62,033 bases of DNA from Deltaproteobacteria bacterium. Lineage in GTDB: Bacteria > Myxococcota_A > Polyangia > Polyangiales > Polyangiaceae. A model generated the notes under the pieces. The model was not told where the DNA came from and searched no databases. It saw only the letters and a list, made by a program, of their open reading frames with translations. Numbering within the stretch: the first letter of the stretch is position 1; each line of letters begins with the position of its first letter. The DNA is taken from assembly GCA_016209145.1 (NCBI GenBank), contig JACQWT010000051.1, positions 1 through 62,033 on the forward strand, read 5' to 3'. This document shows, in pieces, positions 1,876 to 56,425 of the stretch. The translations under genes and the position numbers were made by a program.

Positions 1876-2103
1876 TCAAGCCGCGAAACGGAGGATCTCG
1901 ACCTCGGCGCCGGCGCGGACCGCCGCGTCGGCCACCGAGTACACGCGCTGCGCCACCGGCTCCGTGAGGTAGAACTCGCCGCAGTTGTCGCAGATCTCGG
2001 CGGGAACGGCTTTCATGATGATGGTGGTCTGCCCGCGCTGGAGCGTGACGGTCGTCTCTCCCGGCGCCATCTCGCCGTTCTTGCAGAGCAGGCACGTTGT
2101 CAT
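1876..2103 (-). CDS. MqsA/YgiT-type zinc-finger antitoxin
   Basis: MTTCLLCKNGEMAPGETTVTLQRGQTTIIMKAVPAEICDNCGEFY has the CxxC...CxxC YgiT-type zinc finger. The ATG at 2103 overlaps the stop of the upstream DUF4258 gene (ATGA). Confidence 0.7.
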   Translation of the reverse strand: MTTCLLCKNGEMAPGETTVTLQRGQTTIIMKAVPAEICDNCGEFYLTEPVAQRVYSVADAAVRAGAEVEILRFAA

Positions 2104-2393
2104 CGCTTTCTCCTCTTGAAGCCGGGCTCCCACTTCGCCGGGTCGGGCTCGTACACGGTGATCACGTAGCACCGCCCGGTCGCATCGTCACGGGCGGCCA
2201 CGACGTGGAGCGCCCTCCCGCCGACCGTGCCGAGCAGAAGGCGGCTGGGGTGCGGCTGGTCATCCGGGTACTCGGCGATGATCTCCCCGGCGGCGACCAC
2301 CTCGCGCACCTGCCGGGGAGAGATGGCGCGCGCGAACATCCGCGCAAGGGCGTGGCCCGTGAGGATGATCTCGGTGCACTCCACCAGGTCCAC
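2100..2393 (-). CDS. DUF4258-family toxin
   Basis: C-terminal 97 aa of ORF 2100..3713, starting at GTG 2393. Reads VDLVECTEIILTGHALARMFARAISPRQVREVV...GRCYVITVYEPD, matching the DUF4258 pattern. The rest of that long ORF is antisense to the Hsp70-like gene. Confidence 0.65.
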   Translation of the reverse strand: MDLVECTEIILTGHALARMFARAISPRQVREVVAAGEIIAEYPDDQPHPSRLLLGTVGGRALHVVAARDDATGRCYVITVYEPDPAKWEPGFKRRKR

Positions 2394-2696: not shown

Positions 2697-5303
2697 TTGA
2701 GCATTGCGATAGGGGTCGACATCGGCACGGCAGGCGCGAGCGTGGCCGTGTTCCGCCAGGGCCGGGCCGAGGTTATCGCCGACGGCAGCGGCCTGAGGCG
2801 CACCCCCGCGGCGGTGGCCCTTTCCGGCGGCGTGGTGCGCGTCGGGCAGGGGGCCATGAGCCGGCTCGCCGGCGAGCCATCGACCACGGTGCGCGCGCCG
2901 AAGCGGCTGCTGGGCGGGCCACCGGTCCTGCTGGGCAAGGAGCAGCACAGCCCCGCGCGCCTGGTCGGCCTGCTGGTGGGCCAGATGGTGGCCACCGCAG
3001 AGGCCGTGACCGCAGAGCGGCCGCTCGGCATGGTCCTTGCGGCACCAGTGTGGTTTGGGCCGGAGCAGCGCCAGGCGCTCGCCGAGGCGGGGCGGCAGGC
3101 CGGCGTCGAGGTGCTCGCCCTCGTGCTCGATCCCACGGCCGTGGCCATCCGGCAGTGCGACCTGGGCGTGCAGGCGCGGCGGGCGGTGGTGGTCGATGCC
3201 GGTGCCGGCGGCATCAGTGTCGCCGTGCTCGCCATCGGCCCGCGGGCCGTACGCCTGGTCTCCGCCGCGGGCGACGATCGCGCGGGAGGCGATGCGTTCG
3301 ACGGGGCCATCGTGCGCCGCGCGATCGAGAAGCTCGGGCCGCAAGGCGGCGCGGCGGCCGGCGACCCGGTTCGGGGCGAGCTGCTGCGGCAACGCTGCGA
3401 GGAGATCAAACGCGAGCTGAGCGATTTGGATGCCACGAGCATGCCGCTTCCCTTCCTGCCGCCCTGCGCCGACGGCTCGCCGCCCTCGCTGGCGATGACG
3501 CGTGCCGAGCTGCAAGCGCTGCTCGGCGACTTGCTGCCGCGCACGGCCTTGTGCTGCGAGCGCGCGCTGCGCGACGCGGGCACGAGCAAGCAGGAGATCG
3601 ACGCGCTGCTCGTCACGGGCGGCATGGCGCACGTGCCTGAGCTCCGGCGCGCTATCGAGCTGGTGTGCGGGGGAGCCAAGGCGCAGCTCCAGCCGGCCGG
3701 CGCTCTCGCCCACGGAGCGGCGCTGCTCGCCGGCGCCCTGAGCGGCCTGGACGAGGAGCTACTCGCCGACGAAGGCGCGAGCGGGGGAGCCCAATCCCGT
3801 CGGACGTCGAGCCGCCCGGCCGCGCCCGCCCCGGTGCCCAGCCGCCCGGCCATCCCCGCCCCGGTGCCCAGCCGCCCGGCCATCCCCGCCCCGGTGCCCA
3901 GCCGCCCCGCCGCATCCGCCGCGGCACCCAGCCGCCCCGCCGCTCTCGCCCCGGCACCCAGCCGCCCCGCCGCTCTCGCCCCGGCACCGAGCGCCCCAGC
4001 CGCGCCGGTTCCCACGCCGCCCGTGGCGGCGGCGGCCGCCCCGCCTGCCGCGCCCGCGCCGCCCGGTAGTGCCCCCGGTCCGGCCTGGCTCGAGTCGGGC
4101 CTGGCCTTGCCGGCCGAATGGGCCGGCGTCCCCCCTGCCCCGCGCTCGCAGCCCAGCCTCCCGCCCGTGCCCGAGCGCGGCACGATCCGCAACCCGTCGG
4201 ACGCGGCTTCGCTGCTGGGGCTCCCGCTGTCTCGGCCGCCCACCGCCGCCGAGCTCGAGCCCGTGGCGCTGGCGGTGCTCCTGGCGCGCCTGCTGCGCCG
4301 CCGCGCCGTCACCGGACAGCTCGAGATCAAGCGGGGCGAGCGCAGCGTCGAGCTGCGCGTGCTGGCCGGCCGGGGACTCATCGACAAGAGGGAACGCGAC
4401 AGCCTGCTCGATGCCTTCGGCTGGCCCGAGGCGAGCTACCTGTTCAAGGCGCAGGAACCGCGGGGCATGGGCGCCGAGTCGATTGGCCTGCTCGGGCTGG
4501 CTGCCGAGGGACTGCGCGTCCAGCTCCGCGGCCTCGGGGCCGAGGAGCTGGAGAAGGAGCTCGGCGAGCTGCTCGATCTCGCGCCGAGCGTGGACCACGA
4601 GCGGATCGGAGTGCTGCGGCAGCTCGGCCTGAACCAGCGCGACATGCGCTTCGTGGACTTCGCCCTGGACGGCTCGGCCAGCGGCCGGCACGTCGTCTTG
4701 CACGGCGGCATAGCCCGGCGCACTGCTCTGCAGGTTCTGGGCCTGCTCCAACTCTTCGCCTGCCTGCGCTGGAAGCCCGTCGTCGTGAAGGAAGACCTCG
4801 TGGGCGAGCTGGCACGCCGCTGCGGGCGGACGCTGCGCGCCAATCACTTCGAGGCCCTCGGCGTGCACTGGAGCGCCGGCACCGACGACGTCGAGAATGC
4901 CTACCGCCGTCTTGCCGAGCAGCTCGCCCCGGGCGGCCCATGGAGCGAAGCGGCCCCGGAGGCATGCCGCCAGATGCGCGAGCGGGCGGAGGCCGCCTAC
5001 GCCGTGCTGCGCGACCCGAAGGCCCGCATCGCGTACCGCCGCAAGGCCCACCCGGACATCGACTTCCACGCCATCGACGACCTGCTGGATCAGAAGGCCA
5101 AGGCGCTGGCGATGCGGCAGGCCGACCGCGAGGCCGAAGAGGAGACGCAACGGCGCGAGGAGCTGCGGGCTTCCTGGCACGGGCCCGAGCCACGCAGCCG
5201 GAGCTCGCGCCCGGGCGCCCGCGACAGCGAGCAGCCGTCGCCCTCGACGCGGCCGCCGGCGCCGTCCGCCGGGCCGCACGGCACCGGCGCGGGGAAGCGC
5301 TAG
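2697..5303 (+). CDS. Hsp70-like ATPase fused to a Pro-rich repeat linker, a DUF4388-like region and a C-terminal J-like domain lacking HPD
   Basis: IGVDIGTAGASVAVF...TPAAVA, VVVDAGAGGISVAVL and LLVTGGMAHVPELR are actin/Hsp70 nucleotide-binding motifs. The C-terminus has NHFEALGV...ENAYRRLAEQLAPGG...AYAVLRDPKARIAYRR, which is J-domain-like with APG where HPD is expected. Probable TTG start at 2697. Confidence 0.7.
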   Translation: MSIAIGVDIGTAGASVAVFRQGRAEVIADGSGLRRTPAAVALSGGVVRVGQGAMSRLAGEPSTTVRAPKRLLGGPPVLLGKEQHSPARLVGLLVGQMVATAEAVTAERPLGMVLAAPVWFGPEQRQALAEAGRQAGVEVLALVLDPTAVAIRQCDLGVQARRAVVVDAGAGGISVAVLAIGPRAVRLVSAAGDDRAGGDAFDGAIVRRAIEKLGPQGGAAAGDPVRGELLRQRCEEIKRELSDLDATSMPLPFLPPCADGSPPSLAMTRAELQALLGDLLPRTALCCERALRDAGTSKQEIDALLVTGGMAHVPELRRAIELVCGGAKAQLQPAGALAHGAALLAGALSGLDEELLADEGASGGAQSRRTSSRPAAPAPVPSRPAIPAPVPSRPAIPAPVPSRPAASAAAPSRPAALAPAPSRPAALAPAPSAPAAPVPTPPVAAAAAPPAAPAPPGSAPGPAWLESGLALPAEWAGVPPAPRSQPSLPPVPERGTIRNPSDAASLLGLPLSRPPTAAELEPVALAVLLARLLRRRAVTGQLEIKRGERSVELRVLAGRGLIDKRERDSLLDAFGWPEASYLFKAQEPRGMGAESIGLLGLAAEGLRVQLRGLGAEELEKELGELLDLAPSVDHERIGVLRQLGLNQRDMRFVDFALDGSASGRHVVLHGGIARRTALQVLGLLQLFACLRWKPVVVKEDLVGELARRCGRTLRANHFEALGVHWSAGTDDVENAYRRLAEQLAPGGPWSEAAPEACRQMRERAEAAYAVLRDPKARIAYRRKAHPDIDFHAIDDLLDQKAKALAMRQADREAEEETQRREELRASWHGPEPRSRSSRPGARDSEQPSPSTRPPAPSAGPHGTGAGKR
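3811..3990 (+). repeat. Six tandem 30-bp in-frame repeats (PAPVPSRPAI-type decapeptides) inside the Hsp70-like gene
   Basis: Units start at 3811, 3841, 3871, 3901, 3931 and 3961 (gccgcccggccatccccgccccggtgccca and variants). Confidence 0.9.
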
Positions 5304-5551
5304 TGGGCCGTCCCGCAAGTCCCGCGGATAAGGGGCGGGACGGCCCACTTCGCGGGGAAGGCCACGCCGCTTGCAATTGCGGCCTTCGGCCGCGCAAGCG
5401 GCGTGCCCTCCCCGCGGGCCCTACCGGGGGAGGCGGGGCGCCGCCTCCCACGGCCCCCCACCCGCGTGGCGCGTCCCGGCAATTTCTCCGCACGACTTGT
5501 GGGACGCGCCACTAGCGCGGCGGCCGGCCGTGCTAGGATGGGCCTTTGGCC

Positions 5552-8542
<2,991 letters not shown>

Positions 8543-20293: not shown

Positions 20294-21142
20294 ATGACGA
20301 AGCGAGCGGGGAGTCCAGCACCGCGCGGATCGGCCCTCGTGGCGGCCGTGGTTGCTGCCGCGGCCATGCTCGCCGCACCGTTGGCACTCGCCCAGCCCGG
20401 GCAGTGTCCCGGCGGCAAACAGTGGTACGCGGGCAAGTGCCGTTACCCGGACGAGATTGCCGAGCTCGAGGCCAAGAGGAGGGCCCAGCAGCGCGCCGAG
20501 GGGCAACGGCGCAAGGCCGCGGCCGAGGCGCAACGGCAGGCCGAGCAGGCGCGCCAGGCAGAGGAAGAACGGCGCAAGGCCGAAGAGGAGCAGCGGCATC
20601 GCGCCGAGGAGCAACGGCGCAAGGCCGAGGCCGAGGCACAACGGGAGGCCGAGCAGGCGCGCCAGGCAGAGGAGGAACGGCGCAAGGCCGAAGAGGAACA
20701 GCAGCGGCGCGCCGCGGAGCAACGGCGCAAGGCGGAACAGGACGCGCAGAGGCGCGAGCTTGCCTCACCGCCAGCGCAGGCGCCCGCACCGCGTAGGACC
20801 GAGCCCCGGGCCGTCTCACCGTTCACCTACGTCGGCTTTGGCGTGGGCGCCGCCGGGCTCGTGGTCGGGGCGGTCACCGGAGCAGTCGCCAGCGCCAGAT
20901 CCTCAGAGCTTGACGATGTGTGCCCTGGTAATGTGTGCCCCCCGAGGAAGCGGGATGTCCTCGACAGCGCGAACGCGATCGCCGACGCCTCGACCGCGAG
21001 TTTCATCATCGGAGGCGTGGGAATCACCGTCGGGCTGGTCTCTGTGCTTGTTTCCGTCTACGGCCGTGACGAGGCTAGGGCGGGCGGGCAGCTCCGCCCC
21101 ACTGTGGGGCTCGGGTCGGCAAGCATCGCGGGGCGCTTCTAG
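20294..21142 (+). CDS. Secreted/membrane protein with an Arg/Glu/Ala/Gln-rich coiled-coil repeat region and two C-terminal hydrophobic segments
   Basis: ATG 20294 within ORF 20231..21142, with signal AAVVAAAAMLAAPLALA. Repeats of the form AEAQRQAEQARQAEEERRKAEEEQ. Confidence 0.5.
   Translation: MTKRAGSPAPRGSALVAAVVAAAAMLAAPLALAQPGQCPGGKQWYAGKCRYPDEIAELEAKRRAQQRAEGQRRKAAAEAQRQAEQARQAEEERRKAEEEQRHRAEEQRRKAEAEAQREAEQARQAEEERRKAEEEQQRRAAEQRRKAEQDAQRRELASPPAQAPAPRRTEPRAVSPFTYVGFGVGAAGLVVGAVTGAVASARSSELDDVCPGNVCPPRKRDVLDSANAIADASTASFIIGGVGITVGLVSVLVSVYGRDEARAGGQLRPTVGLGSASIAGRF
20522..20737 (+). repeat. Two tandem 108-bp (36-codon) in-frame repeats
   Basis: gccgaggcgcaacggcaggccgagcagg at 20522 recurs as gccgaggcacaacgggaggccgagcagg at 20630. 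Confidence 0.8.
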
Positions 21143-21635: not shown

Positions 21636-22283
21636 TCACCCCTCGCCGTCGCCCTCACCGAGCGCGTCGAGCTGCGCCCAAATCGCGTCGAGATCGATGG
21701 TCAGCTCCGGGCAGCCGGGCACGCCTTCGATCTTGCCGCCCGCCGCGCCCAGGGCGTGCACGTAGCGACCGTCGGGACCGAGCTCCCAGATCTCGAGCGT
21801 GCGCAGCTCGGGATCCATGATCCAGTACCAGGGCACGCCGAAGGCGGCGTAGTCCTCGACCTTCTCCAGGCGGTCGCGGCGCACGTCCCTGGGCCGGGGC
21901 GTGAGCACCTCCACGACGATGCTCGGAGGCAGGCGTAGCAGCGAAACGCTCAACCCTGGCCGCCGTGCGCCGGGGAGGTATGCGAACAGATCCGGCTTGC
22001 GTCCCCGTCGCGGTCGGACGGCGAGCTTGCCCTCGGAGCCGGCGGCACAACCGCCACGCGGAAGCAGCCAGGCGTTGAGCACCGCGCCCAGCAGCACCAC
22101 CACGAGCTCGTGCGCGAACGTCGGCATCTCCTCCTGCACGAGCTCGCCCTCCACGAGCTCGCCCGGCTCGTCCTCGTCGAGCTGGGCCCACTCCTCGAGC
22201 GTCAGGCGCGACGCGGCTCCCGCCTGCTCGATCTGGCCGATGCTCACAAGTTCGAGGATAGCGTGCGGGCAAGGCGGCATCAA
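21636..22283 (-). CDS. Uma2-family endonuclease
   Basis: LTLEEWAQLDEDEPGELVEGELVQEEMPTFAHE...PDLFAY...PSIVVEVLTP...DRLEKVEDYAAFGVPWYWIMDP is the canonical Uma2/PD-(D/E)xK layout. Confidence 0.75.
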   Translation of the reverse strand: MMPPCPHAILELVSIGQIEQAGAASRLTLEEWAQLDEDEPGELVEGELVQEEMPTFAHELVVVLLGAVLNAWLLPRGGCAAGSEGKLAVRPRRGRKPDLFAYLPGARRPGLSVSLLRLPPSIVVEVLTPRPRDVRRDRLEKVEDYAAFGVPWYWIMDPELRTLEIWELGPDGRYVHALGAAGGKIEGVPGCPELTIDLDAIWAQLDALGEGDGEG

Positions 22284-26159: not shown

Positions 26160-26184
26160 ACGGATCCGTGGTATCATCGCCGCG

Positions 26185-27711
26185 ATGCGGGAGACCGCCA
26201 GCGCCGGCGACCAACTACGGCGACGCGCCGAGCGGCGGGTCGGCGCGGTGCTGAACGAGAAGTGGCAGCTCGATCGGCTGCTCGGCGTCGGCGGTATGGC
26301 GGCCGTCTATGCGGCCACGCATCGCAACGGCAAGCGCGTGGCCGTCAAGGTCCTGCACCCGGAGCGCGCCCTGAACGAAAGCATCCGGCGCCGGTTTCTG
26401 CGCGAAGGCTACGCCGCCAACAAGGTCGATCACCCCGGGGCCGTGTCGGTTCTCGACGACGCTGTGGCCAAGGACGGCAGCGTATTCCTGGTCATGGACC
26501 TGCTCGAAGGGGAGACCCTGCAGGCGCGCATCGAGCGCGTGGGGCCACTGCCCGTCGAGGCTGTCCTGCCGGTCGTCCACTGTCTGCTCGACGTGCTTGC
26601 CGCAGCGCACGACAAGGGCATCGTACATCGCGACCTCAAGCCCGAGAACGTCTTTGTCACCGACGCCGACGTGGTCAAGGTGCTCGACTTCGGCATCGCC
26701 CGACTACGCGAGGACGCCGGGCGCACCGGGGCAACCGGCGCCGACACCTCGCTCGGGACACCCGCCTTTATGCCACCCGAGCAGGCCCGCGGCCGCTGGA
26801 ACCAGGTGGACGGCCGCTCCGATCTATGGGCGGTGGGCGCGATCATGTTCACCCTGCTCACCGGTCGCTACGTGCACCAGGCGGCCACGCTCAACGAGCA
26901 CTTGTTGGCTGCCATGACAGAGCCCGCTCCTGCGTTGGGGGTGGTGGCCCCGGAAGTGCCAGCGCAGGTGGCATCCATCGTGGACCGGGCGCTCGCCTTT
27001 GAGAAGGACGCACGCTGGCCTGATGCCCGAGCCATGCAGCAGGCCGTCGCCGACGCCTACGAGGCGCTCGTCGGTACGCCATTGCCCGAGCCTGGCGAGC
27101 ACTCGTCCCGAGGTCTCGCCCGTCCCCCGGCGTCGCGGCCCCGCTCCGCCTCGGCCCCGGTGCTCTCGGCGAGTGGCGACGCAAGCCGGTCCACCACCGC
27201 CGGCGGAGCCCACGAGCTCGGCGGGATCCCGGCGCGGGCCAGGCGGCGCTCCTATCTGCTCGCCGCCGCACTCCTCGTCGCGGTCGCGGTAGGCGCCGCC
27301 TGGCTTGTGCCTCGTGGCGCCGGGCGCGACCGCACGGCGCCGCCGGCGGCCGCGGGCCCCGAGGCTGGCAGCGCGAGTGCGCCGGCTTCGCTGGCGACCG
27401 CGCAGGCAAGCCAGGGCGCGACGGCTCCAGACGCCGGGCTCGCGGTACGCCTGCCGCCTGAGCCGGTCGCAACGGGCGGGCCGTCGCCACCGGGCTCCAC
27501 CGCGGCTGGCGCTCGGGCGGCGGCGAGCCAGGCTTCCGCCGCAACAGCCGCCGCCCCTCCGCGGCAGCCGGGCGTGTCCGCGCCGGCGACCGCTAGGTCC
27601 GCAACTCAGCCCGCGACGAGCGCCGGGCCTTCTGGCGGCGCACGAGCGCCACGGCCGGCCGAGGCCAGCAGCCGCCCGGTTGATCCACTCGGACCCGAGA
27701 CGCAGTGGTGA
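26185..27711 (+). CDS. Ser/Thr protein kinase with a TM segment and an Ala/Pro-rich C-terminal region
   Basis: GVGGMAAVYAATHRNGKRVAVKVL, HRDLKPENVFV, DFGIARL, GTPAFMPPEQ, and the TM segment YLLAAALLVAVAVGAAWLV. Confidence 0.85.
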   Translation: MRETASAGDQLRRRAERRVGAVLNEKWQLDRLLGVGGMAAVYAATHRNGKRVAVKVLHPERALNESIRRRFLREGYAANKVDHPGAVSVLDDAVAKDGSVFLVMDLLEGETLQARIERVGPLPVEAVLPVVHCLLDVLAAAHDKGIVHRDLKPENVFVTDADVVKVLDFGIARLREDAGRTGATGADTSLGTPAFMPPEQARGRWNQVDGRSDLWAVGAIMFTLLTGRYVHQAATLNEHLLAAMTEPAPALGVVAPEVPAQVASIVDRALAFEKDARWPDARAMQQAVADAYEALVGTPLPEPGEHSSRGLARPPASRPRSASAPVLSASGDASRSTTAGGAHELGGIPARARRRSYLLAAALLVAVAVGAAWLVPRGAGRDRTAPPAAAGPEAGSASAPASLATAQASQGATAPDAGLAVRLPPEPVATGGPSPPGSTAAGARAAASQASAATAAAPPRQPGVSAPATARSATQPATSAGPSGGARAPRPAEASSRPVDPLGPETQW

Positions 27712-33149: not shown

Positions 33150-33239
33150 CGCCCCCTCTTGACCTGCATCCGAGGAGAAAGTCTAGCAGCCTTGGCAAGA
33201 CAGCGACATCCCTTTCGCCGCCGACGACCCGATCCTGCG

Positions 33240-33749
33240 CTACCTCCCCGTCCCCCCCCGACCCTTCCACCCCAGCACCCGCAGCGCATTCTCCGAGAAG
33301 ATCTTGCGCACGTCCGCCTGACTCAAGCCGGCGGCGCCCAGGGCACGGGCGAGGTCGGGCAAGCGCGAGGCGTCCTCCAGGCCGCCGGCCGGAGTCGCGC
33401 CGTCGAAGTCCGACCCGATGGCCACGTGGTCGATACCCGCGACGCCGACCATGTGCAGGGCGTGCCGGACGAGATCGTCAATGGTGGCGCGGCGGCTGGC
33501 GATGAACTTCGCGTGGAAGTTGAGCCCGGCGATGCCCCCCGTGCGCGCGATCGCGCGGAGCTGGTCGTCGGTCAGGTTGCGCTGGTTGCGGCACTTGGCC
33601 CGGGCGTTGGAGTGGCTCGCCACGATGGGCGCCCCCGCGGCCTCGGCGATGGGCACGAGATCGGCGAATGCCGCATCGGACATGTGGGAGGCATCCACGA
33701 GCACGCCCTGCTCGTAGATCCGCCGGCACAGCGCCTTGCCGGCCGCGGG

Positions 33750-33750
<1 letters not shown>
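33240..33750 (-). pseudogene. Duplicated 3' half of the M19 membrane-dipeptidase gene (fragment)
   Basis: About 510 bp at ~96% identity to 35637-36145. Encodes AAGKALCRRIYEQG...DFDGATP...LGWKGRGGTGR and lacks the N-terminal half of the enzyme. Confidence 0.75.
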
Positions 33751-34362
<612 letters not shown>

Positions 34363-34555
34363 AGCGCAGGGCCGTCGGTGCGGCGCGGATGATCGGCGCA
34401 CCCTCCGGGGGTGCCAAGCTGGCCACGCCCGTCGCCCCCGCGCCAAGCTCGCGCACGAGCCGGTGGGAGCCCCCGGTGGCTAGGCCAAGCAAGCGCTCGC
34501 GCGGCGGGGCAGGCATACTTGACCCAGGAGGGAACGCCCGCAAGCGGGCGGCCGC

Positions 34556-34812: not shown

Positions 34813-35334
34813 TCACGGGGCAAACATCTCCTGAAGAACCGTGGCAACCCGCGCGAATGTCGGCCCTGACAGTCGGCCAAGATGTCGGAGAAGACGTTCC
34901 CGATCGACGGTGCGAAGCTGGTCCGTGACGACGTGTCCGTTCCGATTCAGGAACCGGCAAGGCACGCGGAACGGGTACGGTCGGCCTCCTGTCGTTAGAG
35001 GAGCGACGATGACAGTGCGGAGATGCGCGTTGAGCTGATCCGGCGAGACCACGACACAAGGCCGCATCTTCTCGATCTCGCTCCCGCGGGTCGGATCCAG
35101 GTCGACGAGGAACACGTCCCCGCGCTGTACGCGTTCACGCCTTCTCCCAGTCGGCTCGTCAGGCGGCCGCGAGCGCGAGCGCGCCCGGAGGCCCGGGCCG
35201 CAGCGTACTCCTGTACGTGAGGACCCGGGCGGAGGACGTAAGCCGCGATCGCGGCCGACTCGGCGAGCCGTCGTTGCTGGCGCGGAAATGCCGTGAACGG
35301 CTACCCCGCGCCTGGCAGACTTCGCAGCTACCAC
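34813..35334 (-). pseudogene. mazF: MazF/PemK-family toxin gene split by a 180-bp MITE-like insertion
   Basis: Core RGDVFLVDLDPTRGSEIEKMRPCVVVSPD...VAPLTT...VVTDQLRTVD. The first nine codons (GTG 35334 ... AGG CGC) are separated from the core by the element at 35126-35305. Confidence 0.7.
35126..35305. mobile_element. MITE-like element, copy A (180 bp, terminal inverted repeats, 6-bp TSD CCGCGC)
   Basis: The ends contain CGTTCACG / CGTGAACG inverted repeats. CCGCGC is at 35120-35125 and 35306-35311. The interior is ~90% identical to the reverse complement of 53047-53225. Confidence 0.65.
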
Positions 35335-35576
35335 CGCCATTCGGCCTCGTCGAAATGAGTGGGCGTCGGAGCGTCAAGGAGCCGGTCGGCGTCCTCGGCG
35401 TGGGCCATCCGGGCGGCCTCGGCCCAGCCGCTTCGCGGCGTCTTCTGCGCAAGGATTACGATGGTGTTGCCCCGCAGCTCCAGCTCGACATCATCGGGCA
35501 AGCCCGCCAGCATGATGAGGGGCTTCGGGAGCCGGACGCCGCGGGAGTTGCCCATCCGGACGAGCCTGGTCCTCAT
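35328..35576 (-). CDS. mazE: AbrB/MazE/SpoVT-family antitoxin
   Basis: MRTRLVRMGNSRGVRLPKPLIMLAGLPDDVELELRGNTIVIL is a SpoVT/AbrB swapped-hairpin motif. Lies immediately upstream of mazF. Confidence 0.7.
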   Translation of the reverse strand: MRTRLVRMGNSRGVRLPKPLIMLAGLPDDVELELRGNTIVILAQKTPRSGWAEAARMAHAEDADRLLDAPTPTHFDEAEWRW

Positions 35577-35636
35577 ACGGAGATACAATGTACCTACGTC
35601 GGGCCGTGACGTCAAGCCCGAGGTGCACGCGCACGG

Positions 35637-36853
35637 CTACCTCCCCGTCCCCCCCCGACCCTTCCACCCCAGCACCCGCAGCGCATTGTCCGAAAAGATC
35701 TTGCGCACGTCCGCCTGGCTCAAGCCGGCGGCGCCCAGGGCGCGGGCGAGGTCGGGCAGGCGCGAGGCGTCCTCCAGGCCGCGGGCCGGAGTGGCGCCGT
35801 CGAAGTCCGACCCGATGGCCAGGTGGTCGATGCCGGCGACGCCGACCATGTGCAGGGCGTGCCGGACGAGATCGTCAATGGTGGCACGGCGGCTCGCGAT
35901 GAACTTGCCGTGGAAGTTGAGCCCGGCGATGCCCCCCGTGCGCGCGATCGCGCGGAGCTGGTCGTCGGTCAGGTTGCGCTTGTTGCGGCACTTCGCCCGC
36001 GCGTTGGAGTGGCTCGCCACGATAGGCGCCCCCGCGGCCTCGGCGATGGGCACGAGATCGGCGAATGCCGCATCGGACATATGGGAGGCGTCCACGAGCG
36101 CGCCCTGCTCGTAGATCCGCCGGCACAGCGCCTTGCCGGCCGCGGTGAGCCCGTGCCGGGCGGACCCGGTCGCCGAGGAGGAGAAGGCGTTGTCGTGGGC
36201 GTGCACGGGGCCCACGAGACGCACGCCGCGCGCGATGAAACCGTCGATCTTGGCGGGATCGGACGCGAAGGCGCGGGCTCCCTCGATGCCGAGGTACACG
36301 GCCACGGCGCCAGGGGGCGCCGGGCCTTGGCTCGCGAGGCGCAGCGAGGGGTTGGCAGCCAGGATCTTCTCGATCGTGCCCAGGACCGCCTCCGTGTCTG
36401 CCGGCCGCGGCTTGCCGCCACGCGCGTCGTCCGGGACGTAGATCGCGAACAGCACCGCGGCGTAGTGGCCGGCGCGCAGCGCCTCCGCGGTGATGTGCCC
36501 CTCCGGCAGGCTCGGGAGGCGCCCCTTGGAATGCACCTGCCAGGCCGTGTCCACGTGCAGATCGACGACCGGCACGGGCGCGTCCGGCCCAGGCTCAGGC
36601 ACCGGCACCGGCAGAGCCGGCTCGCCGGTGCCGGCCGTTGGGCCGCCGCGCGGGCCGGCCGCGGCAATCGAAGTACCGGCGGCGCTCGCCGTCACGGCGG
36701 CAGGGGCCGACCCCGAGGCCGCGCTCGGCGGCTCGGCCCTCTCCGGCCGCGCACAGCCCTGCAGGCAGAGCACGGTGCCCGGCAGCGCCAAGGCGCCGAG
36801 CACCGCGCGCCCGAGGCGGCGGTGCGATCTTCCGGCCGCGGCAGGTGCACGCA

Positions 36854-38137: not shown

Positions 38138-39973
38138 ATGAGCAGGACAACGGCACGCGGCGGGTTTCTGCTTCTCTCGGCAGCGGGCGCCTGGGGCATG
38201 CTCGCCTGCTCGGGCAGCGAGCCAATCGCCGCCACGGGGACTACGACCGGCGGGACAGGGGGCGCGGGCGGGTGCCCCGCGGGGCTGACCGAGTGCTCCG
38301 GCAAGTGCGTGCCCACCGCGCTCGACCCGGCGCACTGCGGCGGCTGTGATCGGGCCTGCGCCCCCGGCGAGGTGTGCGCGGCGGGCCAGTGCGCCATCGA
38401 CTGCGGCGGCGGCACCACCAAGTGCGGCGGCAAGTGCGTGGACACCACCCTCGACAAGGCCCACTGCGGCGGCTGCGACAATGCCTGCGCGGTGGGCGAG
38501 CTGTGCTCCGCCGGAGGGTGCGCGCTCCAGTGCCTGGGCGGCACCACCGACTGCGGCAAGGCGTGCGTGGACACGAAGCTCGATCCGGCCAACTGTGGCG
38601 CCTGCGGCCACGGCTGCGCCCCGGGTGAGGTGTGCTCGGCCGGCCAGTGCGCCCTCGACTGCGGCGGCGGCACCACGAAATGCAGCGGCGCCTGCGTCGA
38701 TCCGGATCTCAACCCCGAGCACTGCGGCGGCTGCAACAACGCCTGCGGCGCGGGCGAGCTGTGCTCGGCCGGCCAGTGTGCGCTCCAGTGCCTGGGCGGC
38801 ACGACCAAGTGCGGCAACAAGTGCATCGACACGACCAACGACCCGGCCAACTGCGGCGGCTGCGGCGTGGCCTGCGCCAAGGGCCAGATCTGCGCGGCCG
38901 AGAAGTGCCAGTCGGAGTGCGGGCCGGGCACGACCAAGTGCGGCAACAAGTGCACCGACACCGCGCTCGATCCCGCCAACTGCGGAAGCTGCGGCGCTGC
39001 CTGCCCGGGCGGCCAGGTGTGCTCCTCCGGCCAGTGCGCGCTCCAGTGCTACGGCGGCACCGTCAAGTGCGGCAGCAAGTGCGTCGACCCGACCCTGGAT
39101 CCGGCCAACTGCGGAAGCTGCGGCAATGCCTGCCCGGGCGGCCAGTACTGCGTGGCCGGCGCCTGTCAGCTCGTCTGCCCCGGACCGCTGACCAAGTGCG
39201 GGAACAAGTGCGTCGACACGCAGACCGATCCGGCTCACTGCGGCGGCTGCGACAAGCCCTGCGGCAACAACGAGACGTGCAGCGCCGGCAAGTGCATCGG
39301 CGGGCTGTACAAGACCTGCAAGGAGATCCTCGATGCCGGCAAGTCGGTGGGCGACGGGATCTACTACATCGATCCCACCGGCGGCGACCCGGGGGACAAG
39401 TTCCAGGTGTACTGCGACATGACGCTGAGCGGCGGCGGCTGGACGCTGGTCTACTTCGTCGACGCCGCCCACTTCGACGGCACGCACGCCAACGACAAGA
39501 ATCTCAACCCCAATGCGCCTACGACGATCAACGCCCAGAAGGACTTCTGGAACGCCGAGTTGAAGCTCGGCATCGCCGAGACGCTGTTCGCCTGCACCAC
39601 GCAGAACGGAGGCGGGCCATACTGGTGGTACTACAACAAGAAGGACCCGCACACGTTCTTCGCCAACACCAGCCAGAGCTACGACTACCAGCCCTCGATG
39701 GCCAGCACCGCCCACAACGGAACGTCGGCCGGCGGCTGCATGAGCACGCACAAGGCCAATCCCTACGGCTTCGTCGTGATCGAGAAGAGCGGCTGCGGCT
39801 CGTGCGGCCAGATGCTCTACGGGATGTACCACTACGACGGCGGCGGCGGCTGCAACAGCACGAGCAACACCTACGGCAACCACGCCAGCCCCTGGGACAA
39901 CCGCAGCATCGCCTACCCGATCTGCAACGGCCAGCAGACGAGCAACGGCAAGCTCTGGGTGGGGGTGCGCTAG
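38138..39973 (+). CDS. Secreted lipoprotein with nine Cys-rich 43-aa repeats and a C-terminal fibrinogen-C-like (FReD-like) module
   Basis: ATG 38138 within ORF 36638..39973. Lipobox GMLACS. Repeats of the form CGGGTTKCGGKCVDTTLDKAHCGGCDNACAVGELCSAGGC, then CKEILDAGKSVGDGIYYIDPTGGDPGDKFQVYCDMTLSGGGWTLV. Confidence 0.65.
   Translation: MSRTTARGGFLLLSAAGAWGMLACSGSEPIAATGTTTGGTGGAGGCPAGLTECSGKCVPTALDPAHCGGCDRACAPGEVCAAGQCAIDCGGGTTKCGGKCVDTTLDKAHCGGCDNACAVGELCSAGGCALQCLGGTTDCGKACVDTKLDPANCGACGHGCAPGEVCSAGQCALDCGGGTTKCSGACVDPDLNPEHCGGCNNACGAGELCSAGQCALQCLGGTTKCGNKCIDTTNDPANCGGCGVACAKGQICAAEKCQSECGPGTTKCGNKCTDTALDPANCGSCGAACPGGQVCSSGQCALQCYGGTVKCGSKCVDPTLDPANCGSCGNACPGGQYCVAGACQLVCPGPLTKCGNKCVDTQTDPAHCGGCDKPCGNNETCSAGKCIGGLYKTCKEILDAGKSVGDGIYYIDPTGGDPGDKFQVYCDMTLSGGGWTLVYFVDAAHFDGTHANDKNLNPNAPTTINAQKDFWNAELKLGIAETLFACTTQNGGGPYWWYYNKKDPHTFFANTSQSYDYQPSMASTAHNGTSAGGCMSTHKANPYGFVVIEKSGCGSCGQMLYGMYHYDGGGGCNSTSNTYGNHASPWDNRSIAYPICNGQQTSNGKLWVGVR
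38273..39297 (+). repeat. Tandem array of ~129-bp coding repeats (about nine units, with a 258-bp super-period)
   Basis: gactgcggcggcggcaccac recurs at ~38398 and ~38656. Each unit carries the CxxxxxxC...C..C...C......C......C spacing. Confidence 0.8.
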
Positions 39974-51641: not shown

Positions 51642-53020
51642 CGGCACGAGTGAGCATGGCGAGCCAGACGCCCGCCGTCACGGTGGTGGGCGGCGGCCTG
51701 GCCGGCTGCGAGGCGGCTCTGCACCTCGCGCACCGAGGCATCCCGGTGCGCCTCTACGAGATGCGGCCAGCGCGGCGCTCCCCCGCGCACGCGAGCGACG
51801 AGCTCGGGGAGCTCGTCTGCTCCAGCTCGCTCGGCGCCACGGCGCTCACGGGCGCCAGCGGGCTGCTCAAGGAGGAGCTCGCACGCGCCGGCTCGGCGCT
51901 GATGCGCTGCGCCGATCAGACGCGGGTGCCGGCCGGCGGGGCGCTGGCGGTCGATCGGCGGCGCTTCGCCGTGGCGATGACGGGCCTCGTGGCCGCGCAC
52001 GAGCGCATCGAGATCGTGCGCCGCGAGGTCGCGCGCATCCCTGACGAGCGGCCGGCGATCGTCGCCACCGGGCCGCTCACCTCGGATGCCCTGTGCGAGA
52101 GCCTGGCCCAGGCGGTGGGCGCGGAGCACCTGTTCTACTACGACGCCATCGCCCCCATCGTCAGCGCCGAATCGATCGACTGGTCTGTGTGCTGGAAGCA
52201 GTCGCGCTACGACAAGGGCGGCGCCGACTACGTGAACTGCCCCCTCGACGAGACCCAGTACCGCGCCTTCGTCGCGGCCTTGCTCGCGGCCGAGAAGGTA
52301 GCGCCACGACCGTTCGAGGAGCCCGTCTACTTCGAGGGTTGCCTGCCGTGCGAGGTGATGGCCGAGCGCGGGGTGGAAACGCTGGCCCACGGCCCGCTCA
52401 AGCCCGTCGGGCTGACCGATCCGCGCGCGGGCCGGCGGCCCTATGCCGTGCTCCAGCTCCGCGCCGAGGACGAGGCGGCGAGCGCCTTCAACCTCGTCGG
52501 CATGCAGACGCGCATGAAGCACGGCGAGCAGAAGCGCGTCTTCCGGATGGTGCCGGGCCTCGGGGGCGCCGAGTTCCTGCGTCTGGGAAGCGTGCACCGC
52601 AACACCTTCCTCAACGCGCCCGAGTTGCTCGACGAGACGATGCAGCTTCGCGCGCTGCCGGGCGTGTACGTTGCCGGCCAGCTCACCGGTGTCGAGGGCT
52701 ACGTCGAGAGCGCCGCCGGCGGGCTGCTGTGCGCCGTCACGCTGGCGCAGCGGCTTCGGGGCGAGCCCGTGCGCCCGCCGCCCGCCACCACCGCGCTGGG
52801 AGGCCTCCTCGGGTACCTGCGGCGCCGGCAACCGGCGTACCAGCCCTCCAACATCACCTGGGCGCACCTGCCGCCGTTGGAAGAAGGCGACCGGCGCCTG
52901 CGCAAGCGCGCGCGCTACCAGAAGGTGGCCGAGCGGGCGCTGATGGAGCTCGACTCCTGGCTGCACGAGGCGGGGCTGGGAGGCAGGAGCGCGGCCGAGC
53001 CGCGCCGGGGCTACGAGTAG
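51638..53020 (+). CDS. trmFO: Methylenetetrahydrofolate--tRNA-(uracil-5-)-methyltransferase TrmFO
   Basis: [39 protein letters not shown] and [21 protein letters not shown] 51638 overlaps the previous stop; the alternative ATG 51656 fits family N-termini better. Confidence 0.9.
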
Positions 53021-53036
53021 GCCTTGCTACGGTGCC

Positions 53037-53456
53037 TCACGGCGTTGGTATGCGTTCACGCATTGCGGCGCTAGCAACGACGGCTCGCCGAGTCGGCCGC
53101 GATCGCGGCTTACGTCCTCGGCCCGGGTCCTCACGTTCGGGAGTACGCTGCGGCCCGGGCCTCCGGGCGCGCTCGCGCTCGCGGCCGCCTGACGATCCGG
53201 GTGTTGGAATGCGTGAACGGCTACCGGCGTTGACGTCCACGACCGCTCGGTCGTCGTCCACGGCGTACACGACCCGGTAGTCCCCGACGCGGATGCGCCG
53301 CAGGTCGTTGCGACCGACGAGCTTACGGCGCCCCGGCGGTCGCGGGGCCGCAGCGAGCGCCTCGATCCTCCGGAGAACGCGATCGGCCTGCCGCGCATCG
53401 AGGCCCTCCAACTCGCGCCGCGCGGACCGCGCGAGGACCACGCGGTACCTAGCCAC
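53037..53456 (-). pseudogene. RelE/ParE-family toxin gene with its 3' end replaced by read-through into the MITE
   Basis: GTG 53456. VARYRVVLARSARRELEGLDARQADRVLRRIEALA...LVGRNDLRRIRVGDYRVVYAVDD is RelE/ParE-like. After ...VVDVNA the frame enters the element at 53225. Confidence 0.65.
53047..53225. mobile_element. MITE-like element, copy B (179 bp, TIRs GGTATGCGTTCACGCATT / AATGCGTGAACGGCTACC, 6-bp TSD GGCGTT)
   Basis: GGCGTT at 53041-53046 and 53226-53231. The interior matches the reverse complement of copy A. Confidence 0.7.
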
Positions 53457-53646
53457 GGAGCTTGCCCAGCTTGCGGAGCCGGCGGCCGACGGACTCAATG
53501 GTCTCCCGGGGCTCACTCTCGCGCTGCCTCGCCACGATGGCGTCGTAGATGTCCTCCCAGAGCCCGGCGTGCCTCCTCAGGTCGAGCAGGACGGCGAGTC
53601 GCTGGCCTCTGTCGTCCGTCACGAACTGCAAGCCCGGAACGCCCAT
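53449..53646 (-). CDS. Small antitoxin candidate upstream of the RelE/ParE gene
   Basis: 65-aa ORF overlapping the toxin start by 8 nt, which is typical type II TA organisation. Family not recognised. Confidence 0.45.
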   Translation of the reverse strand: MGVPGLQFVTDDRGQRLAVLLDLRRHAGLWEDIYDAIVARQRESEPRETIESVGRRLRKLGKLRG

Positions 53647-54569: not shown

Positions 54570-54686
54570 GTAGCCGTTCACGGCATTTCCGTGCCGGCAA
54601 CGACGGCTCGCCGAGTCGGCCGCGATCGCGGCTTTCGTCCTCGGCCCGGCTCCTCACGCACAGGAGTACGCTCCGGGCCGGGCCTG
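54570..54686. mobile_element. MITE-like element, copy C (truncated or degenerate, one terminus only)
   Basis: GTAGCCGTTCACGGCATTTCCGTGCCGGCAACGACGGCTCGCCGAGTCGGCCGCGATCGCGGCT... matches copies A and B for ~115 bp, then diverges. No second TIR is present. Confidence 0.5.
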
Positions 54687-54702
54687 TGGAGCGCTGCTCC
54701 GC

Positions 54703-55506
54703 TTGCCAGTCCCTCGCGCTCGCATCGCCTCGGACGGGTCCCAGACCAACCCCGGCCCGAACGGCGGCGCGCCCGTTGGCAACAAGGTCTCGACGGCGCA
54801 CAATCCCAACAGCGCGGTCGACATCAAGAGCTGCAACGACCCGAGCTGCATCAAGGACTGGTTCGAGGCCGAGTACCGTCCCTTCAAGAAGGCCAACGAG
54901 CTCCCCGTCGCGCCCAACTGCGGCTCCGGCAACGCGGGGGGACCGCAGACCGCCAGGGACTCGGTCATGCTCAAGCTGCGCCTGCGGGCGCCGAGCAACG
55001 CGCTCAGCTTTTCCTTCAGCAGCTTCTTCCTGTCCGCGGAGTACCCCGAGTACGTCTGCTCGAGCTACAACGACCAGTTCATCGCCCTCGTGACCACACC
55101 GGGAGGCGCGCCCCAGCCGATCCCGAACCCGGTGGACAAGAACCTGATGGTCTACAACGACGGCCAGCAGAAGTGGCCCATCGGCATAAACATCGCCTAC
55201 GGCACGAATCTTTTCGCGGTGTGCGAGCCTCAGAACATCAACCCGGGCTGCTGGGACCAGAGCGTCAGCGTGAAATCCTGCAAGCTGGGAGACGCCATGC
55301 TCGCCGGCACGGGCTACGACAAGAAGAGCAACTGCGACATCGGCGGCGGGACGTACTGGCTCACGACGCACGGCAACGTCATTCCAGGCGACATCGTCGA
55401 GCTCCGCATCGCCATCTGGGACGTGGGCGACGCCCAGTTCGACTCGCTCGCGCTGATCGACGGCTTCAAGTGGCAGGCCAACGCCACCATCCCGGGCACG
55501 GAGTAG
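54703..55506 (+). pseudogene. Choice-of-anchor-L-like secreted-protein gene lacking its 5' end and signal peptide
   Basis: DSVMLKLRLRAPSNALSFSFSSFFLSAEYPEYVCSSYNDQFIALV is a typical choice-of-anchor L core. The ORF opens directly at the truncated MITE copy, with no signal peptide and only a TTG start. Confidence 0.45.
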
Positions 55507-55519
55507 CAGGCCCGCCGAC

Positions 55520-56350
55520 CTAGCCCCGGCGCAGCCGATCGATCTCCGCCTGCAGCTCCGCGACGCGCCGCAGGGCCTCGTCGCGCTCCTGCTCGGCGCG
55601 CTCCCGCTCTTGCTCGGCGCGCTCCCGCTCTTGCTCGGCGCGCTCCCGCTCCTGCTCGGCGCGCTCACGGCGACCGACCAGATCGCCGACCATGGCCTCG
55701 AGCCTGGCCACGAGCTCGTCGGCCTCTGGCAGCGGCGCCGTGCCGAAGTAGAAGCGCAGACGCTCGTCGACAAGCGCCAGATCGAGGCCGAGCACCGCCG
55801 AGCTGTACAACCCCTGCTGCGGCATGATGGCCTCGTAGCTGCGGGCCTCGACGCGCGGCAGCCGCCAGCCGTAGAGCCGGCCGCGGGTTCGGTCGAACAA
55901 GAAGTACTCGGGGATCCCGAGCCGCGCGTAGCGCCGGCGGTTGCCCTCGAAGTCCTTGGCGAACTCACCGCTGACGTGGATCTCCAGCACCAGATCGAGC
56001 CCCTTGCCCTCGTGGCTCACGACCCACGTGCTGCGCTCGTGCGGCTCCACGTCGAGCACGGCCAGCACGTCCGGGGCGAAGCGCGGCTCGCCCGGGTAGT
56101 AGACGCTGAGCTCCGAGGACAGGTACACCTTGCGCCCGATGCGGCGGTAGAAAGCGTCGAGCGCGCCGAGCGCGCGCGACTTGGCGAGGCGGTGGGCGTC
56201 GCCCTCGGGCATGAACAGCTCGAGCGGCACCTCGCACGGCAGCGCCGCCACGACCCGGCGGCGTTCTTCGGACGACATGCGCTCCCACTGCTCGGCCGTG
56301 GGCGCCCGAGGATCGCTGGCGTCGAGGTGAAAGACGACGGGTTGGGTCAT
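55520..56350 (-). CDS. Uma2-family endonuclease with a C-terminal heptad-repeat extension
   Basis: ATG 56350. FMPEGDAHRLAKS...FAPDVLAVLDV...LDLVLEIHVS...YARLGIPEYFLFD, then a C-terminal (ERAEQER)x4 and VAELQAEIDRLRRG. Confidence 0.7.
   Translation of the reverse strand: MTQPVVFHLDASDPRAPTAEQWERMSSEERRRVVAALPCEVPLELFMPEGDAHRLAKSRALGALDAFYRRIGRKVYLSSELSVYYPGEPRFAPDVLAVLDVEPHERSTWVVSHEGKGLDLVLEIHVSGEFAKDFEGNRRRYARLGIPEYFLFDRTRGRLYGWRLPRVEARSYEAIMPQQGLYSSAVLGLDLALVDERLRFYFGTAPLPEADELVARLEAMVGDLVGRRERAEQERERAEQERERAEQERERAEQERDEALRRVAELQAEIDRLRRG
55583..55672 (-). repeat. Four tandem 21-bp in-frame repeats (ERAEQER heptads)
   Basis: gcgctcccgctcttgctcggc is repeated head-to-tail. Confidence 0.85.
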
Positions 56351-56425
56351 CACCACCAGGATAGCGCGGACCGGGCCCGGTGTGCTACGCACGGGCCGTC
56401 GCCCGCCCTCTCACGCAGTCTCCTC

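Follow-up and report, generated by a model that had tools for sequence, protein, structure and literature searches.

What becomes of a toxin gene when a small mobile element lands within it, and can such an event be told apart from an ordinary lengthening of the gene? These questions were raised by a mazEF locus in a deltaproteobacterial contig, of which a stretch of 62,033 nucleotides (the window; 72% G+C) was analysed as a whole. A first-pass annotation had described a 180-bp element with terminal inverted repeats (TIRs) and a 6-bp flanking direct repeat that split the mazF toxin gene and inactivated the toxin, while leaving the mazE antitoxin intact. Based on the evidence set out below, it is very likely that a non-autonomous MITE of about 178 bp, with GTAsSCGTTCACG TIRs and a hairpin interior, was inserted into the 5′ end of mazF; its consequences for the toxin are a separate matter, to which sister copies of the element, in the window and beyond it, also speak.

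The mazEF locus and the element within it

The features of the locus, including the two copies of the target-site duplication (TSD) that bracket the element, are as follows.

34813-35340, minus strand: mazF carrying MITE copy 1, one uninterrupted 175-aa open reading frame (ORF) from the native ATG, according to the ORF list and its translation
34822-35127, minus strand: complete PemK/MazF domain (PF02452), residues 72-173 of the product, wholly downstream of the insertion
35118-35125, no strand: downstream TSD of copy 1, identical at 8/8 positions to 35304-35311, with a period of 186 bp
35126-35303, minus strand: MITE copy 1, about 178 bp, termini (G)TAGCCGTTCACG ... CGTGAACGCGTAC(A), recognised by its TIRs, sister copies and fold
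35304-35311, no strand: upstream TSD of copy 1, GCGCGGGG on the gene strand, i.e., CCCCGCGC on the plus strand
35328-35576, minus strand: mazE antitoxin gene, 82 aa, intact
35587-35615, minus strand: sigma-70-like promoter candidate upstream of mazE (TTGACG, 17-nt spacer, TACATT)

Judged by its sequence, the toxin is a member of the MazF/PemK type II family with an overlapping upstream MazE, the native mazF ATG (35340) overlapping the 3′ end of mazE. The 175-aa product, a singleton in the protein collection (P0001), had PemK as its sole Pfam match, and scored 102.6 bits against PF02452 (PemK_toxin) over profile positions 1-109 of 109, compared with 104.5 bits over the same 1-109 of 109 for the 113-aa MazF that was restored in silico. 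The window MazE had the same length as the MazE proteins of two relatives (loci L117 and L118) and was 74-76% identical to them; it matched PF04014, which the relatives' MazE proteins carry, weakly and below the cutoff (18.2 bits). The mazE promoter candidate, a match to the consensus only, was found at one site as against 0.0 expected in shuffled sequences.

The element occupies the position of codons 11-13 of mazF, and within the ORF it forms the segment between codons 11 and 73. Its inverted termini have the form GTAsSCGTTCACG, a core common to all five intact MITE ends in the window, and contain CGTTCACG at 35132-35139 and CGTGAACG at 35292-35299, both within inverted arms of 27 nt with 74% complementarity. 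A nested inverted repeat makes up the interior, and as RNA the whole element was predicted to fold into a single hairpin of -105.2 kcal/mol (z=-4.6), with 0/200 shuffled sequences folding as well. Its boundaries can be placed only to within 1-2 nt, as the flanking G fits either the TSD or the GTA terminus, the consensus GTA...TAC ends being offset by one base from the 8-bp repeat. Together with one TSD, copy 1 amounts to 186 bp, or 62 codons, which are stop-free and in-frame, and through the downstream TSD copy the RRGD motif, which is conserved, regains its R-G; in-silico excision yielded ...VAAKSARRGDVFLVDLDPTRGSE.

A search of Rfam with the MITE matched no family, and no promoter-like or terminator-like site was found inside copy 1. 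The null results from Rfam and Pfam for the element, and its size of 177-178 bp, fit a MITE without coding capacity of its own. Two of the six frames of copy 1 are open, and since the chance that a random frame of this composition is stop-free is 0.37, chance alone should produce read-through fairly often. Origins in integron attC sites, group I/II introns or IStrons were considered and rejected, there being no Rfam match and no array context, as was an intein, given that Pfam identified no Hint domain.

The restored 113-aa MazF found thousands of homologues, and the figures for length and identity given here come from the best 119 besides the window product. These were 106-123 aa long, mostly 111 or 113 aa, and 69-84% identical to it, and included proteins of Sorangium and Byssovorax. 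The restored N-terminus, MAVVAAKSARRGDVFLVDL, aligned without gaps to the MAVVAxKxVRRGDVFLVDL of the homologues. At the level of DNA, an empty site was found in the mazEF loci of Sorangium sp. So ce764 and of one metagenome contig, both of which have a single CGCGG(G/A)G exactly where the window has repeat, element and repeat. Empty sites were thus available at the protein level for MazF and, as described below, for RelE, and at the DNA level for mazEF.

Several features of the first-pass annotation were upheld by these results and others had to be amended. The element with its TIRs was present as described, albeit with a length of about 178 bp rather than 180 bp, and the CCGCGC reported at 35120-35125 and 35306-35311 was there, as part of a direct repeat that is in full 8 bp, not 6. 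That excision would restore mazF was borne out by the match of the restored protein to the full PemK/MazF profile and by its gap-free alignment to homologues, and mazE, at the length seen in relatives, was intact as stated. The GTG at 35334 that had been taken as the mazF start gave way to the ATG at 35340 (MAVVAAK...), the most likely start, as in homologues. Nor could the gene be called split: the insertion is in-frame and stop-free, and leaves one ORF with its native start and a complete PemK domain.

The surroundings of mazEF have some peculiarities of their own. A 510-bp direct repeat (96% identity; 33239-33748 and 35636-36145), which corresponds to the 3′ half of an M19 dipeptidase gene, flanks a 1.9-kb segment holding mazEF and a truncated 5′ fragment of a Ser/Thr-kinase gene (33740-34363), and that fragment is 81% identical to an inverted sequence at 26172-26795. 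The layout looks like that of a single-crossover integration or a duplication, which would have placed mazEF there. The window also has two genes for putative endonucleases of the Uma2 family (PF05685), both on the minus strand, at 21636-22247 and 55520-56356, and in the Sorangium mazEF relative (L118) a Uma2 gene, at 5029-5619, lies directly upstream of mazE.

Sister copies in the window and an interrupted relE/parE gene

BLAST of copy 1 against the window revealed copy 2 (90% identity over 179 nt, E=4e-55) and copy 3 (90% over 138 nt, E=3e-39), which is far more than chance would give, and pairwise identity among the three copies was 84-90%. Copy 2 was found in a second toxin gene, 18 kb from mazF, where the disruption is clearer; this insertion had gone unnoticed in the first-pass annotation. 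The features of that gene are listed with those of copy 3.

53011-53039, minus strand: orphaned 3′ end of relE, encoding ...VRHRSKAYS*
53037-53456, minus strand: relE/parE-family toxin gene with copy 2 in its 3′ end, 139-aa product (singleton P0121)
53040-53047, no strand: first TSD of copy 2, CGGCGTTG, with a period of 185 bp to its partner
53048-53224, plus strand: MITE copy 2, 177 bp, termini GTATGCGTTCACG ... CGTGAACGGCTAC
53225-53232, no strand: second TSD of copy 2, a perfect 8-bp repeat of CGGCGTTG
53449-53646, minus strand: putative antitoxin ORF, 65 aa, intact in appearance, its stop overlapping the relE start; assigned by position only
54570-54706, plus strand: MITE copy 3, truncated or degenerate, with a left terminus and about 135 nt at 84-88% identity

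The 185-bp period of the copy 2 insertion means that the relE reading frame was shifted, and the interrupted gene is a single frameshifted ORF, not a split one. The last nine native residues of RelE have been replaced in the 139-aa product by MITE-encoded sequence, at the cost of the invariant R79 and R81 and the near-invariant H80 and Y85, and coverage of PF05016 (ParE_toxin) was limited to profile positions 1-80 of 89 in the interrupted protein, as against 1-89 of 89 in the restored one. Excision of copy 2 restored a RelE of 86 aa, the modal length of its homologues, with a gap-free alignment and a nearly identical C-terminus. The product in the window is hence best described as a disrupted RelE/ParE member that is without the conserved C-terminal R..R..Y residues, and since it is the conserved C-terminal (catalytic) residues that were lost, copy 2 has probably inactivated this toxin. 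A Pfam scan of its 65-aa putative antitoxin gave no match.

For copy 3, the right terminus and a TSD were looked for and neither was found. Its similarity to the other copies stops near 54703, the TTG start of an ORF of 267 aa (54703-55506) that has neither a Pfam match nor an obvious signal peptide, and the 5′ end of this ORF may have been lost.

The window has a third TA-like pair, which is uninterrupted (1876-2393, minus strand) and consists of a gene for a 97-aa DUF4258 protein (75 bits) that overlaps by 4 nt the gene for a 75-aa MqsA/YokU-like protein, for which the matches were weak and below the cutoff. There are also four coding tandem repeats, i.e., a 129-bp Cys/Gly-rich unit present about seven times at 38288-39267, inside a 591-aa ORF (38198-39973); a 108-bp Glu/Arg/Lys-rich unit at 20486-20733, within a repeat that extends over 20486-20756; a 30-bp Pro/Ala-rich unit at 3810-4003; and, at 55584-55666, a 21-bp repeat encoding ERAEQER units at the end of the second of the Uma2-family genes.

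Relatives of the element and its proposed mode of transposition

Further copies were inferred from MITE-encoded peptides, the protein collection having been queried with the six translated frames of the element. Nine proteins came back from this query, with segments that were about 90% identical to the element, and they belong without exception to a single NCBI MAG (Deltaproteobacteria bacterium, locus tags HY744_; e.g., MBI4701653.1 and MBI4700073.1), which is probably the source of the window. From them at least eight further copies in that MAG, none at a toxin gene, could be counted. One copy fuses two DcrB-like ORFs, another precedes the signal peptide of a cytochrome, and others form the C-terminal tails of OmpA, RNase_H_2, HMG-CoA reductase and two unnamed proteins. 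Yet another divides a gene for an AAA-ATPase with a PD-(D/E)xK-like nuclease into the adjacent calls P0249 and P0248 (HY744_23670 and HY744_23665; MBI4704119.1 and MBI4704118.1), and the match to AAA_35 across the restored junction was weak (E=3e-4, below the cutoff). When the read-through peptide was used in an exhaustive HMMER search, there was one true match only, P0244, again from the HY744_ MAG, and the invariant 24-mer core of the element, GGCTCGCCGAGTCGGCCGCGATCG, was absent from the species-representative genome set. Four metagenome matches to the 24-mer (L001-L004) were rejected as MITEs, being chance resemblances in GST-like coding sequence, ...WLAESAAIVDYL... (WLAESAAI...); one frame of the MITE translates to LAESAAIAAY, and its resemblance to GST is coincidence, not homology. 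Across the genome, metagenome and protein scans, the GC-rich subfamily of the window was seen in one MAG lineage only.

A wider family was defined by its termini. The pattern GTAGCCGTTCACG-N135-165-CGTGAACG, searched in the species-representative genome set, matched at least 112 loci, and a clean set of 36 copies was obtained by removing GC-rich coding coincidences and requiring perfect abutting 8-bp TSDs. The matches discarded in Agrococcus, Caballeronia, Clostridia, Myxococcaceae and Byssovorax were GC-rich chance or coding matches, with no TAC end and no TSD. The 36 clean copies were 162-191 bp long, with interiors unrelated to that of the window element, and the end that the pattern had left free read GTAAC in 22/36 and GTAAG in 5/36. 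Where the listing gave the host, it was mainly one of the Planctomycetota or Desulfobacterota/Thermodesulfobacteriota, and a single Pirellulaceae MAG, BC2.51 (JAWKTR01), holds many of the copies (e.g., L021, L025, L032, L033 and L051, within L005-L116). The TSDs of the family were 69% A+T with no common motif, and most of the 36 copies lay at ORF edges or between genes. Several TSDs contain ATG (e.g., GAAAAATG, CTCAGATG and GTTTTATG), a hint that insertion may occur close to start codons, and some copies carry repeated subterminal CCGTTCACGG motifs.

As to how the element moved, a transposase supplied in trans would have inserted it by a cut-and-paste or copy-in route, with 8 bp of the target being duplicated, and the GTA(A) termini together with the 8-bp duplication suggest that this transposase would be IS66-like. 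The hallmarks of IS66 are GTAAGCG termini and 8-bp direct repeats (PMC11946415). The family studied here shares with it a GTA(A) start followed by (G/C)CG and the 8-bp target duplication, but where the canonical start of IS66 is GTAAGCG, that of the family is GTAACCG, GTAGCCG or GTA(T/C)GCG (the MITE ends in the window being GTAGCCG, GTATGCG and GTACGCG), and past position 7 nothing is alike. The MITE termini had GTA.GCG alone in common with a genuine IS66 element, which came from a plasmid of E. coli, and tblastn with the IS66 tnpA/B/C products gave no match in the window and the retrieved loci. An autonomous element of 0.6-4.5 kb with GTA...TAC ends and an 8-bp TSD was sought, and none was present in the window or in 112 MITE-bearing loci; a scan of viral contigs with a 14-mer returned 120 loci, in none of which a paired terminus was present together with a TSD; and a literature search for a connection between IS66 and MITEs returned nothing relevant. 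The IS66 link is best taken as a lead, not a classification.

The element is like the known bacterial MITEs (Correia/CREE, RUP, ERIC and MITEAba12) in being small, non-coding and multi-copy, with TIRs, a hairpin interior and a TSD of fixed length, and in its location at gene edges and sometimes inside genes, but its sequence is unrelated to theirs, the termini here being GTA(A/G)CCGTTCACG and the TSD 8 bp. The in-frame fusion of small repeats to protein genes, whether internally or at the 5′ or 3′ end, is also documented, for RPE, BRE and RUP/BOX (PMC3184786). The mazF insertion resembles those of the Rickettsia palindromic elements, BRE and BOX/RUP in its in-frame read-through, by which 62 residues were added to an otherwise intact protein, and other copies likewise lengthen ORFs at the 5′ or the 3′ end; selection for the peptide or its structural accommodation, in contrast, is without support here, read-through being fairly often a matter of chance.

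Could the insert be something other than a MITE moved by a transposase? If the 186 bp belonged natively to this MazF, as a lineage-specific linker at its N-terminus, or were an artefact of assembly, there would be no population data to exclude it, as one sequence of the locus exists, but two further copies of the element lie elsewhere in the window in contexts unrelated to mazF, and the precise TSD and gap-free restoration are unlike the products of mis-assembly. Furthermore, none of the 119 best homologues carries the insert (0/119), which also bears on the possibility, raised in the first-pass annotation, that relatives have it as a conserved spacer. This explanation is scarcely credible. 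A repeat of the REP/RAYT or RPE-like type, or some other hairpin repeat, spread by a non-DDE mechanism would accord with an element that is essentially one long hairpin, and with an in-frame read-through like that of the Rickettsia palindromic elements (PMC3184786), and yet it is very improbable given that perfect, fixed 8-bp duplications flank both complete window copies and 36 family members, and that the 13-nt TIRs are conserved between elements with unrelated interiors. Fixed 8-bp TSDs and conserved TIRs are signatures of staggered-cut insertion mediated by a transposase, and it is a MITE mobilised in this way that we favour. The first-pass annotation was right, in other words, to argue for a genuine transposition event, which is supported by the TIRs, the TSD, several copies and empty sites in relatives in both protein and DNA. 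Two of the checks that it had proposed came out in its favour as well, with two more copies in the window by BLAST, one of them with a perfect TSD, and the above score of the restored mazF product against PF02452.

Fate of the two toxins

The same annotation had the toxin inactivated, and for mazF that part was unsupported: the PemK domain is complete, every family-invariant residue is kept, and a knockout is a matter of inference only. What happened at mazF is, as far as the sequence can tell, a transposon insertion of the ordinary sort, for which a toxin knockout is unproven. The sole conserved residue to have changed is the near-invariant R10, now Q, while all invariant columns of the family alignment are kept, and the damage was limited to R10 because the duplicated target regenerates the R-G of RRGD. 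The insert adds a low-complexity Arg/Pro/Gly-rich segment of 62 residues just before beta-strand 1. Among solved relatives, the MazF9 structures 5HJZ and 6KYT (E~4e-14), homology to the product begins at the RRGD motif, which lies 2-5 residues from the start of the chain; as the MazF9 fold begins there, the added residues would hang off a free N-terminal end. An AlphaFold2 model of the 175-aa product had a mean pLDDT of 49, too low to interpret. In the mRNA, the -105 kcal/mol hairpin falls about 36 nt past the mazF start codon. The hairpin and the Arg/Pro/Gly-rich extension could well reduce the expression or the activity of MazF, and the probable effect of the insertion is a lower or an unaltered MazF output, rather than outright abolition of the protein.

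The stronger view, by which the insertion inactivates MazF and leaves mazF a pseudogene and mazE an orphan antitoxin, is a serious possibility, if one we put at somewhat under an even chance. It draws on the low-complexity segment directly before strand 1 and the R10 to Q change, on the hairpin just past the start codon, and on the sister copy, which clearly truncates another toxin; moreover, loss of the toxin with retention of the antitoxin is the direction in which TA decay is expected to proceed. Against this stand the ORF that is unbroken from the native ATG, the PemK profile that is covered from 1 to 109 of 109, a core that retains all family-invariant residues with no frameshift or stop, and the start of the MazF9 fold at RRGD, which makes the N-terminus a free end; MazF proteins that are tagged N-terminally are, besides, commonly active. 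At the other extreme, a MITE-bearing mazF might still be working and under selection, through co-option of its insert either as a longer N-terminus or as a hairpin in the mRNA by which the toxin-antitoxin ratio is tuned. Such a co-option is unlikely, though the toxin core does retain its invariant residues while the MITE copies differ by about 10-16%. Between the two, a MazF that is reduced in output or unaffected is the reading that we prefer, and the mazF insertion would persist because it is harmless. Chromosomal TA decay through toxin loss is documented, e.g., for ccdO157 in E. coli (PMC3184786), and both window modules resemble that case in that a toxin gene was struck and the antitoxin is intact. 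The relE gene fits it fully, having lost its catalytic residues, whereas mazF keeps a complete toxin domain and its decay is not demonstrated.

That both complete copies in the window (2/2) lie in toxin genes raises the further question of whether the family inserts preferentially into type II toxin genes, or finds safe havens in them. Toxin genes account for 1.45% of the window, and under uniform insertion the probability that at least two of three copies would fall in them is P=6e-4, or P=0.011 for 2/11 copies; the two sites also have GACGT in common at the boundary of the TSD and right flank. Targeting is nonetheless improbable. The HY744_ copies, at least eight in number, sit at non-toxin genes or their edges, from DcrB, the cytochrome and OmpA to RNase_H_2, HMG-CoA reductase and the AAA ATPase; of the 36 clean copies, which are in other phyla, most are intergenic, and their A/T-rich TSDs have no motif in common; and the two window insertions are oppositely oriented relative to their toxin genes. 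Once one toxin gene has been hit, uniform insertion would strike a second with a probability of 2-9%, and this probability is higher with lethal sites excluded, since a gene-dense genome retains none but harmless insertions. The simpler account is one of survivorship: both insertions would have survived since a toxin that is lost or weakened, with its antitoxin kept, costs the cell nothing.

The current understanding of TA systems or of transposons is unchanged by this locus. It does warrant caution in annotation, in that the public 175-aa 'PemK toxin' and 139-aa 'ParE toxin' are MITE chimeras. It also defines a family, with GTARCCGTTCACG termini, an 8-bp TSD and a length of 160-190 bp, which is plentiful in some genomes of Planctomycetota and Desulfobacterota. 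Should the co-option of the mazF insert prove true, MITEs of this family might be reversible or attenuating modifiers of TA modules. The locus is a clean, well-documented example of MITEs remodelling TA modules in a GC-rich genome of deltaproteobacterial/myxobacterial type, where one insertion removes the catalytic tail of a toxin and the other merely pads the N-terminus of its target.
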